Sequence record: PZ452584.1
DNA: 64,000 nucleotides
Source of the DNA: a phage
Strand: one strand, 5' to 3'
The translations under genes were made by a program, and so were the position numbers. Shown in pieces: positions 17,087 through 49,251 of the stretch; the first letter of the stretch is position 1, and every line of letters starts with the position of its first letter. The notes beneath the pieces were generated by a model. The model was not told the DNA's origin, made no database searches, and saw only the letters and a list, made by a program, of their open reading frames with translations.

Positions 17087-17254
17087 CTATAGCAAAAGTT
17101 GTGTTTCATTTAATTGTTCTTCCGAACTTTCTGAAACTGGTAGTTCTTTAATGTAATTATAGCAAGGCCCAGGATGTACAGGACCTTTGTCTGTTTCAAC
17201 AACCAATGCAGAATCGATTGGAGTTTTACAGACAACACAAATCTTATCTGACAT
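17087..17254 (-). CDS. Small CxxC protein (uvsY-downstream ORF, not in ORF track)
   Basis: 55-codon ORF read by hand; GAGGAG 6 nt before ATG; TATAAATA at 17280-17287. Confidence 0.6.
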   Translation of the reverse strand: MSDKICVVCKTPIDSALVVETDKGPVHPGPCYNYIKELPVSESSEEQLNETQLLL

Positions 17255-45997: not shown

Positions 45998-46008
45998 TTA
46001 AATTAAAA

Positions 46009-46869
46009 TTATACCGCCATTTTTCCTTTCAAGACACCGTAGGACTGATAATCTTTGAGAACGAAATCTTTAGGCCTGAGTTTAAGAACATATTCCAATT
46101 GTTCTTTAGTAGAAAGATAACGGAATTTATAAGGCAATCCGCCTATTACCAGTTCACAAAGCTCTTTAGGTTCACGACGCAAAATTTCTTTGCATTGTTC
46201 TACATGATTCATATAGATATGAGTATTACCACCAGAAAATATCAAATCTCCTGGAGTAAGATTACACATCTTAGCTATAATATGAACTAACGCAGCATAT
46301 GATGCAATATTAAATGGAAGGCCGAGAAAAACATCTACTGATCGTTGATACCACTGCAAATCCAAATAGCCATTACGCACATTAAACTGATAGAACATAT
46401 GACAAGGCGGTAATGCCATCTGCTTGATTTCAGCTGGATTCCATGCTGAAACGATTTGACGTCGATCAGTTGGTAATTTTTTAATACGATCAATAACTTC
46501 TACAATTTGGTCTACACCGCCAAAATCACGCCACTGTTTTCCATAAATTGGACCAAGTTCACCGCTATGGTATCCTAAATCTTTTGCTTGATTTTCGTAA
46601 TTTTCATCCCAGACTGTTTTGCCTTGGATTAACGAATCATGCTGAATTAATCGTAAATCATTGACATTTGTGCTTCCTGATAAAAACCATATTAACTCAG
46701 CAATGCAAGCTTTCCAAGCGAGCTTTTTAGTTGTTACCGCAGGAAAACCTTTAGTTAAATCCCAACGCAATTTAGTACCGAACAAAGCAATTGTTCCTGT
46801 GCCTGTTCGGTCATCGGTTTCATAACCATTTTCAAAAATGTCTTTAATTAAATCTTGGTATTGTTTCAT
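46009..46869 (-). CDS. td: Thymidylate synthase, uninterrupted
   Basis: 286 aa continuous; active-site LPPCH present; no intron. Confidence 0.95.
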   Translation of the reverse strand: MKQYQDLIKDIFENGYETDDRTGTGTIALFGTKLRWDLTKGFPAVTTKKLAWKACIAELIWFLSGSTNVNDLRLIQHDSLIQGKTVWDENYENQAKDLGYHSGELGPIYGKQWRDFGGVDQIVEVIDRIKKLPTDRRQIVSAWNPAEIKQMALPPCHMFYQFNVRNGYLDLQWYQRSVDVFLGLPFNIASYAALVHIIAKMCNLTPGDLIFSGGNTHIYMNHVEQCKEILRREPKELCELVIGGLPYKFRYLSTKEQLEYVLKLRPKDFVLKDYQSYGVLKGKMAV

Positions 46870-46914
46870 TTAGTACCTTATATAAATTATAATACATTTT
46901 ATGAAGCTAAATAA

Positions 46915-47274
46915 TCAATACGGTTTAGCATCAAATTTTCTCTCAATTTCAGGTGTGAAATATAATTCTTTACCGCGTTTGGAAAAGCGACCAATAATAT
47001 GATAATTATTCTCATCAAACGTAATATTACCAATATCCATAGCTTTCAACCAAATATCGATATTTCTATCCAGCTTTATGTCAAAATTCCAATACGGAGA
47101 ACTATTACCAAAAATACTACAAGCGGATTCAGTGAAACAGCTACTATAAATCTTGTCTTTAGGAACTACTAATTGATAGACACCTTTAATAAACTGAGGA
47201 CCTTGCCATTTTGGCTGTTTCGCGTCTTTTTCTAATAGAATAGGATAATAATTAAAATTCATATTTTCCGCCAC
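46915..47274 (-). CDS. Hypothetical protein inserted between frd and td
   Basis: 119 aa ORF; not expected between frd and td in T4. Confidence 0.6.
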   Translation of the reverse strand: MAENMNFNYYPILLEKDAKQPKWQGPQFIKGVYQLVVPKDKIYSSCFTESACSIFGNSSPYWNFDIKLDRNIDIWLKAMDIGNITFDENNYHIIGRFSKRGKELYFTPEIERKFDAKPY

Positions 47275-47282
47275 GCGTTATT

Positions 47283-47867
<585 letters not shown>

Positions 47868-48110
47868 TCAAAACCCCCTTTCAATAAACCATTCAGTGGC
47901 TTTATTAGCATCAAAGAATAATTCTTCATATGTCTTTTCTTTGTTTTCAAAAACTGTCACACAAACACGTTGACATTCTCCACAGTATTCTTCTGACATA
48001 CTTAAAGCGTCAGAAAACATTTCTTTAAATTCATTTAAATCAGGATTATGCAATGCGTTAAAAATTGCATAATCAAATTCATCATTCATAAATTCAAATA
48101 CAAAAATCAT
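47868..48110 (-). CDS. Hypothetical protein
   Basis: 80 aa. Confidence 0.55.
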   Translation of the reverse strand: MIFVFEFMNDEFDYAIFNALHNPDLNEFKEMFSDALSMSEEYCGECQRVCVTVFENKEKTYEELFFDANKATEWFIERGF

Positions 48111-48120
48111 ATTGTTTTCC

Positions 48121-48363
48121 TTAAACAGACTTTTTCACAATTTTCCAATCAGCTTTAAACTGCTCGACGTCAGAGTGATGAATCCAGAAACCAGATGAGC
48201 TACCATCTTCATAAAGAGGACAACCATCGCACTCATCTTTCCAACCCATCGCGCATAAAGTTTCTTCAGCTTTTTCCAGAGCTTCTGGATTGTTACCCTG
48301 GATTGTAAAGTACCATTTGCCTTTAACTTCTGAATCTTTGATGCTCTCACGTTGTAATTTCAT
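48121..48363 (-). CDS. Hypothetical protein
   Basis: 80 aa; overlapping alternative-frame ORF 48135..48350 disregarded. Confidence 0.55.
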   Translation of the reverse strand: MKLQRESIKDSEVKGKWYFTIQGNNPEALEKAEETLCAMGWKDECDGCPLYEDGSSSGFWIHHSDVEQFKADWKIVKKSV

Positions 48364-48440
48364 TTTATTCTCCAGTGTTTTAGTTGTTAACTCAGTATGG
48401 GACCATTATGTCATAGCCCCATTTGGTTGTACACTACTTT

Positions 48441-48812
48441 TTACTGAATATTAAAAGTTGCTTTAATCAGTGCAATGACTTCTGCCGCATTTTTATGATT
48501 TACCTGCACATGAATGGTTTGGGTATCAATATCAGGAGCATCGCCATCAACTTCCAGGAAGTGACAGAATTCCCATTCAGCGAGTTCAAAGTACTCGTCA
48601 GCATTATCATAAACAGACTTCAGGATGGTGCCATCTTTCATTTCAACTTTTTCGACAAAATAATCACCGTCGATATAACACATGTCCAGGACTTTAAAGG
48701 AACTGCCATGTTGTTCCATAATCTTAATCATGCGCGAATTGTTATCAGGACTACCAGCGATGAATTGTTTTTTGGCAGCAGGGTCTAATACGTAAAATTT
48801 ACCAATTTCCAT
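48441..48812 (-). CDS. Hypothetical protein, paralogue of 48871..49251
   Basis: Start at ATG 48812 (GAGGA SD); early promoter at 48842-48871. Confidence 0.6.
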   Translation of the reverse strand: MEIGKFYVLDPAAKKQFIAGSPDNNSRMIKIMEQHGSSFKVLDMCYIDGDYFVEKVEMKDGTILKSVYDNADEYFELAEWEFCHFLEVDGDAPDIDTQTIHVQVNHKNAAEVIALIKATFNIQ

Positions 48813-48841
48813 TTTATTTTCCTCATGTAGTTGATAGGGTA

Positions 48842-48871
48842 ATAGTATCACACTACTACCCTACTGTAAAC
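48842..48871 (-). promoter_or_regulatory. Early promoter candidate (GTTTACA-17-TACTAT)
   Basis: Consensus-like elements 25 nt upstream of ORF start 48812. Confidence 0.55.
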
Positions 48872-49251
48872 TACTTTTTGAAAGTTTTTCGCAAAAGTTC
48901 AATGATTTCATCTACATTGTTTTCATCTACAATGCAGTGAATTTTTGTTACGCCAGAAACCTTGTCTTTGACTTCAACTTCTTCAGAAGTCGGTTCTTTA
49001 TACTCACGAAAACAATGAAATTCGTCTTCGCAAATTTCTAAAAGTCTATCTTTGAGGTAAAAATGCTTTCCATTTGCGCATTCAATGTGTTTTACTGCTT
49101 TATATCCATTAGCGACGGAAACTTCTTTAACTTCAAACCATCCGCCATTATCTCGAATCGCTTTAACTATTGATGAATTAGAACGTGGGCTATAATTAAT
49201 AAATGTATCAATAAGTCTTGGAACAAGCTCATACTTTTTACCGGTATACAT
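48871..49251 (-). CDS. Hypothetical protein, paralogue of 48441..48812
   Basis: 126 aa; shared pattern with neighbour. Confidence 0.6.
   Translation of the reverse strand: MYTGKKYELVPRLIDTFINYSPRSNSSIVKAIRDNGGWFEVKEVSVANGYKAVKHIECANGKHFYLKDRLLEICEDEFHCFREYKEPTSEEVEVKDKVSGVTKIHCIVDENNVDEIIELLRKTFKK

Follow-up and report, generated by a model that had tools for sequence, protein, structure and literature searches.

The open reading frame between frd and td

The 64,000-nucleotide (nt) stretch of phage DNA considered here (record PZ452584.1; "the window" denotes this whole stretch, and all coordinates are its positions) carries a small open reading frame (ORF), ORF A, between frd and td, which encode dihydrofolate reductase (DHFR) and thymidylate synthase and were classified by Pfam. 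The three genes share one strand (Table 1). As a preliminary description of the locus had stated, the ORF list contains a frame of 119 amino acids (aa) in this position and orientation (46915..47274, minus strand), when counted from a GTG codon; its product begins MAENMNFNYYPILLEKDAKQPKW. The same description gave frd and td of T4 as adjacent and overlapping, which agrees with the T4 record (T4T): the two genes overlap by ATGA, nothing lies in between, and T4 lacks ORF A. That the ORF has no assigned function also stood, as PHROG 1928, a family of unknown function, gave the only match among the libraries searched.

Table 1. Features of the frd-td region of the window and the evidence for each
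Feature	Position	Strand	Evidence or remark
ORF A coding sequence, 115 aa	46915..47262	-	ATG 47260-47262, stop TGA 46915-46917; PHROG 1928 match
GTG extension, four codons (MAEN)	47263..47274	-	probably untranslated leader
frd, dihydrofolate reductase, upstream of ORF A	47283..47864	-	Pfam DHFR_1, E 4e-19
td, thymidylate synthase, 286 aa, downstream of ORF A	46009..46869	-	Pfam Thymidylat_synt, E 1.3e-94, residues 2-286
TAAATGAAA copy 1, 9-bp direct repeat, over frd stop TGA 47283-47285	47281..47289	-	pattern search; BLAST of T4 junction against window
TAAATGAAA copy 2, over td start ATG 46867-46869	46864..46872	-	pattern search; BLAST of T4 junction against window
Spacer, 45 nt, ORF A stop to td start	46870..46914	-	consensus scan

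The start codon, on the other hand, had to be corrected. In phages Lutter and AndreasVesalius (Vesalius below), one nucleotide is missing between the GTG and the ATG that follows, so that the GTG frame stops after four codons (GTG GCG GAA ATA TGA), and the records of both phages annotate the ATG start. As translation from the GTG would not enter ORF A there, the conserved start is ATG 47262, yielding a product of 115 residues that begins MNFNYYPILLEK; ORF A thus probably starts there and not at GTG 47274. This ATG is separated from the frd stop by 20 nt, and the leader contains GGCGGA (47267-47272), which may serve as a weak Shine-Dalgarno (SD) sequence.

ORF A corresponds to a gene that is already catalogued and ordinary in kind, and that T4-like phages mostly carry. 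It is the same gene as the hypothetical protein RB32ORF229c / PHROG 1928, present in T2, RB14, RB32, AR1, and several hundred Tequatrovirus records. Its translation is 100% identical to that of phage Ozark, 99.2% to that of T2, and 96.6% to that of RB32; the PHROG 1928 match (E 9.5e-36) covers residues 8-115 of ORF A and profile positions 2-125 of 126. RB32ORF229c likewise lies between frd and td and has the same 9-base-pair (bp) flanking repeat; the window copy differs from it only by the in-frame upstream GTG with its four extra codons.

The pattern of codon changes argues that ORF A is a real gene under purifying selection: comparison with Mosigvirus PHB12 reveals 28 synonymous and seven non-synonymous changes, comparison with RB32 reveals 10 and two, and these ratios are comparable to those of td. 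The opposite notion, that of a spurious or decaying frame without function, is hardly credible. The absence of ORF A from T4 at no obvious cost and its weak SD might speak in its favor, but the synonymous excess is strong, the frame stays intact in hundreds of genomes and between genera at 26-47% identity, and the AlphaFold2 fold is confident (see below); judged by this conservation, the notion appears effectively refuted. A foreign origin, to which the low overall GC content (31.3%) might point, was dismissed: the GC content at third codon positions (GC3) is 25.0% in ORF A, 25.8% in frd, and 26.1% in td. As GC3 matches that of both neighbors, the lower overall value reflects amino-acid content. 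No paralog of ORF A was found elsewhere within the window.

Distribution of ORF A and the T4 junction

By tblastn, ORF A matches 581 phage records, and 363 of these matches reach an identity of at least 90%. Within Tequatrovirus the gene is near-monomorphic (349 of the 363 copies are at least 95% identical); of 519 records with a match to the frd-ORF-td region, about 353 have it, including T2, RB3, RB9, RB10, RB14, RB18, RB32, RB68, and AR1. When 60 records, picked at even intervals from 515, were searched with the T4 junction, about 40 proved to have ORF A (about 67%), 16 a different insert, and four the T4-type direct junction (about 7%); two of these four are T4 itself. T4 is therefore the exception at this locus, and its gene-less junction is rare and derived-looking.

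Homologs with 26-47% identity occupy the same slot in Kanagawavirus, Karamvirus, Marfavirus, Moonvirus, Jiaodavirus, Winklervirus, Krischvirus, Gelderlandvirus, and several metagenomic T4-like contigs; with Mosigvirus, which also holds a homolog there, at least nine genera are involved. In 11 of the 12 contexts examined, the gene lies between those for DHFR and thymidylate synthase. The exception is P0024, a distant, weak but genuine family member on a T4-like metagenomic contig (L016, 1248-1577). It lies outside the frd-td slot, directly upstream of and overlapping an RlaP-family (PF10127) gene, and a RegB-like gene is located about 3 kb away.

Two further small genes share the slot. B, a longer paralog of A, measures 113-148 aa and has about 19 extra residues inserted behind the QKKW motif; it occurs in many lineages outside Tequatrovirus, and its relationship to A is supported by hmmsearch (E 5e-8 to 4e-20) and hhalign (probability 97.7-98.4%). 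C is an unrelated 68-aa ORF that begins MSNKLKVKDVPNAMALF, is very basic (isoelectric point, pI, about 10), and has no Pfam match. In roughly one Tequatrovirus record in four, it takes the slot instead of A, starting within the frd ATGA and ending in a TAATG overlap with td. Altogether 238 records contain C; Dhakavirus and Marfavirus are among them, as is, at about 42% identity, the non-T4-like Phapecoctavirus. Examples of C (protein MSNKLKVKDVP...) are located at 1815-2021 of L004 (ACG-C40), 2148-2354 of L005, 3670-3879 of L011, and 2188-2394 of L015; in ACG-C40, GenBank annotates just the last 42 codons.

The full order frd-A-B-C-td is present in the Logan contig L011, Entb_45, and R3_1. Other slots contain A-B (Moon, CHI14), B-A-A-x (L010), or A alone (Mineola and the window). 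In other genera, the cassette genes usually overlap by 4-23 nt, frd and td included. Such packing suggests that they are translated together with frd and td. ORF A may represent the first gene of frd-A-B-C-td, an old cassette of small genes that would have been trimmed differently by lineage: most Tequatroviruses would keep A only, the ACG-C40 group C only, and T4 none. Such tandem paralogy and differential loss are typical of accessory genes. Trimmed at repeated stop/start motifs, the cassette would be a tidy example of precise small-gene loss in T-even genomes.

The preliminary description presented the ORF as inserted cargo. While its account of T4 and of the missing function was accurate, this framing was not supported by the comparison: most records of the genus carry ORF A, the same slot is occupied in at least nine genera, GC3 resembles that of the flanks, and sequence identity is at the local baseline. 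Compared with Lutter and Vesalius, nucleotide identity is 98-99% for ORF A, 93% for frd, and 81-87% for td, and per 100 nt the flanks are less similar (td 69-93%, frd 83-97%) than ORF A (96-100%). A recent sweep or mobile spread, which the high identity of ORF A could bring to mind, was dismissed, as sliding windows place the regional baseline at 97-100%, with ORF A at this baseline, and td, frd, and frd.1 hold divergent mosaic patches. Between genera, identity amounts to 32-47% for A and 45-58% for Frd, and in L011 to 63% and 49%, respectively. The divergence rate of A appears similar to that of Frd, and slower than might be expected for an arms-race gene.

Deletion of 417 bp (46873-47289) from the window reproduces the T4 junction TATAAATGAAACAATACC exactly. 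Copies of TAAATGAAA bound this segment, and for RB32ORF229c a GenBank note reads 'flanked by 9 bp repeat'. This 9-mer occurs 10 times in the window (3.4 ± 1.8 expected; no shuffle reached 10), for instance at 17104, 18555, 24814, 35579, 38905, 46864, and 47281; the two sites examined both lie across a stop/start gene junction. Since it is a frequent stop/start junction motif, microhomology-mediated deletion would provide a simple route to the T4 state. Repeats of this type could act as microhomology for precise whole-gene loss. That the 9-bp repeat arose by duplication of a target site is less likely, TAAATGAAA being a common junction motif in the window. Whichever the polarity of the change, the frd-td slot itself appears ancestral, given the wider synteny.

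Predicted fold and candidate roles of protein A

Searches of Pfam, NCBIfam, PADLOC, and PDB sequences gave no convincing match for the ORF A protein or the 23 family members (the best single-member Pfam E value among the 23 is 0.011). A hidden Markov model search of 1.84 billion representative proteins resulted in 22 matches, of which 20 are family proteins of 95-116 aa; the two long ones (P0021 and P0023) were discarded as unrelated repeat proteins. A profile search of 5.8 billion proteins retrieved only unnamed phage proteins. The gene is specific to phages.

Protein A (115 aa) is mildly basic and is predicted to be mostly β-stranded with one helix. The pI is 7.7-9.5 in 21 of the 23 members and 6.8-6.9 in the other two. 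The AlphaFold2 model built from the alignment of the 23 members has a predicted local distance difference test score (pLDDT) of 92 and a predicted template modeling score of 0.84; a first model from four sequences (pLDDT 64) was not used. The modeled fold may be OB-like, its closest counterparts then being known OB-fold binding domains (HIN, S1, RPA/SSB, Teb1/Cdc13, and RuvA domain I). No nuclease is present among the structural neighbors of the model.

The family is characterized by the motifs LLExDxxQKKW, HG(I/V)Y, GN(I/V), and IIGRFxKxGxxxxFxP. Six residues are invariant in the 31 A and B sequences (Gln16, Trp19, Gly27, Gly91, Lys95, and Gly97; numbering from the ATG). Leu9, Tyr29, Phe93, and Phe102 are nearly invariant in all 31, as is Asn79 within the 23-sequence alignment of A. 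Conserved positions include Trp, Tyr, Phe, Lys, and Arg residues, which, like the mostly basic pI, lend indirect support to a putative binding of single-stranded DNA, RNA, or another ligand; no Asp, Glu, His, or Cys is conserved in the 31 sequences. Because no acidic, His, or Cys residue is conserved, protein A probably acts by binding rather than by catalysis, with a nucleic acid or a protein as partner. Residues Gln16, Trp19, Asn79, Arg92, and Lys95 constitute a candidate binding patch.

Taken together, ORF A is regarded, with moderate confidence, as an ordinary, vertically maintained accessory gene encoding a non-enzymatic OB-like binder. It is transcribed in the direction of frd and td and would be co-expressed with both, promoter-like elements for td being carried by the 45-nt spacer behind it, and its product would act at the early to middle stage, the period in which the genes for nucleotide precursors are active. 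As T4 lives without it, the gene is presumably dispensable under laboratory conditions. Several points weigh against this picture. Both the vestigial ATG-AAA-TAA at the frd stop and the 9-bp repeat would fit just as well with an indel in the other direction, in which the ancestor of Tequatrovirus and Mosigvirus had frd and td joined as in T4 and A was re-inserted between them. The location of P0024 makes the link to frd and td positional, not absolute. Finally, literature searches on RB32ORF229c, frd/td junction ORFs, T-even accessory-gene screens, HIDEN-SEQ, and PHROG 1928 gave no binding partner, expression data, or phenotype for any family member, nor any mention of the gene.

The label 'putative homing endonuclease' comes from the BASEL annotation. 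According to it, ORF A would be a free-standing homing endonuclease or another mobile element, which is very improbable. The label stems from manual annotation guided by comparative alignments, with no domain evidence reported for it. Presence/absence polymorphism between conserved genes, together with a 9-bp direct repeat at both ends, is what a mobile gene might produce, and in this respect ORF A resembles the seg and mob homing endonuclease genes of T-even phages, which are likewise present or absent between conserved neighbors in otherwise collinear genomes. Unlike these, however, ORF A lacks both a nuclease domain and catalytic residues, keeps one place from genus to genus, and shows no sign of co-conversion. 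No convincing HNH, GIY-YIG, LAGLIDADG, PD-(D/E)XK, or other Pfam domain was detected in the 23 members, an EDxHD-type or other nuclease domain is lacking, catalytic or metal-binding residues are not conserved, and the model bears no structural similarity to nucleases. With 115 aa, the protein is also small for a free-standing homing endonuclease; its syntenic position is stable between genera, the flanks are more diverged than ORF A itself and show no co-conversion gradient, and the 9-mer is a common junction motif. The label fails every testable defining feature.

A host-interaction or anti-defense role, raised in the preliminary description, is possible. In its explicit form, a small host-takeover or anti-defense protein would neutralize a host protein or a defense sensor, and its presence or absence would reflect host-range selection; this is considered a minority option, unlikely on the whole. 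Many characterized small, non-essential early T4 proteins target the host. The polymorphism of the locus in Tequatrovirus (A, C, or nothing), the one to three tandem paralogs in the slot, and the dispensability of the gene in T4 would all suit such a function. Yet the slot is fixed in at least nine genera, A diverges no faster than Frd and is near-monomorphic within the genus, and neither PADLOC, which covers defense and not anti-defense systems, nor the literature searched gave a link to defense.

Alternatively, protein A could be a dedicated accessory of thymidylate and folate metabolism, which binds Frd, Td, another member of the complex synthesizing deoxynucleoside triphosphates, or the frd-td mRNA, and tunes dTMP (thymidylate) synthesis. 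The position directly between DHFR and thymidylate synthase in nearly all contexts examined (11 of 12), start/stop overlaps suggestive of translational coupling, an evolutionary rate resembling that of Frd, and a predicted basic, OB-like protein are all compatible with this role. On the other hand, gene order is generally conserved in T4-like phages, which makes position alone weak evidence; Frd and Td of T4 function without A; P0024 is found elsewhere, beside an RlaP-family gene; and C, which shares the slot, also occurs in the non-T4-like Phapecoctaviruses. Such a dedicated role is rather improbable.

A bolder proposal, also regarded as improbable, is that A and B form a structurally novel small β-barrel without a significant PDB neighbor, and that they are a conserved player in T-even infection that T4-centered genetics overlooked as T4 deleted A. 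Its members would be either an accessory subunit of Frd and Td or an RNA-binding regulator, or else an anti-defense or host-takeover family whose A/B/C content tunes host range.

Whatever its role, the family to which ORF A belongs is among the better conserved Straboviridae genes without a Pfam entry, a function, or a recognizable fold. Other ORFs of the gene 32-nrdA region (Frd.1/DUF5417, Frd.2/PF03197, Frd.3/PF05798, NrdA.1/DUF4326, and DUF5496) are likewise small, same-strand, tightly packed, positionally conserved, and located beside nucleotide-metabolism genes, and their function is unknown. These families are in Pfam and in T4, whereas the ORF A family is in neither, and it has no sequence similarity to any of the five.

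Spacer, database labels, and neighboring genes

The spacer between ORF A and td contains several promoter-like elements. The consensus scan identifies a sigma-70-like pair, TTGATT (46913-46918) and TATTAT (46889-46894), separated by 18 nt. TTTAGCTTCA (46902-46911) may be a MotA-box-like element, followed 12 nt on by TAATTT (46884-46889); this assignment leans on the published T4 middle-promoter consensus. The SD of td is AAGG (46876-46879). In the record of phage Lutter, a 'promoter' feature is annotated at the site equivalent to the spacer. In PHB12, the spacer before td measures only 15 nt and has no promoter-like elements; these are thus not essential to the arrangement.

Most GenBank records label the product of ORF A 'hypothetical protein'. 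Other labels are unsupported and inconsistent: besides the homing endonuclease, 'putative glucose-1-phosphate adenylyltranseferase' and 'putative dihydrofolate reductase' are found in isolated records and are clearly wrong, and the mislabeled records include MN580668, PQ571308, OM386666, OK272473, and MZ501050. T4 is a poor reference for the frd-td locus, the gene-less ATGA junction being rare and not the norm, and wrong GenBank labels have already arisen where a difference from T4 was read as an "insertion" or a "homing endonuclease".

Downstream of ORF A, td of the window is uninterrupted: according to Pfam and the ORF over 286 aa, it contains neither a group I intron nor I-TevI. An intron and a GIY-YIG ORF are present in td of T4T, Lutter, ACG-C40, L017, L018, and L019. 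As Lutter carries both, ORF A occurs independently of the td intron.

On the other side of frd, an 80-aa ORF (47868-48110, minus strand; very low GC, 28.8%) without a Pfam match separates it from a DUF5417 (Frd.1-like) gene. ACG-C40, Lutter, and Vesalius have an ORF in this place and T4T has a 71-nt gap, making this a second gene beside frd that is missing in T4. Further upstream, two tandem FRD2-family (PF03197) genes (48441-48851 and 48871-49251, both on the minus strand) correspond to the single frd.2 of T4T; the region 48400-48800 is mostly absent or unalignable in Lutter and Vesalius. Compared with these two phages, identity falls within td to 69% at 46601-46700 and 49% at 46001-46100, and to 37-77% in the region of frd.1 and the 80-aa ORF (47900-48400). 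The divergent patches at 46000-46700 and 47900-48400 indicate mosaic recombination with a more distant lineage.
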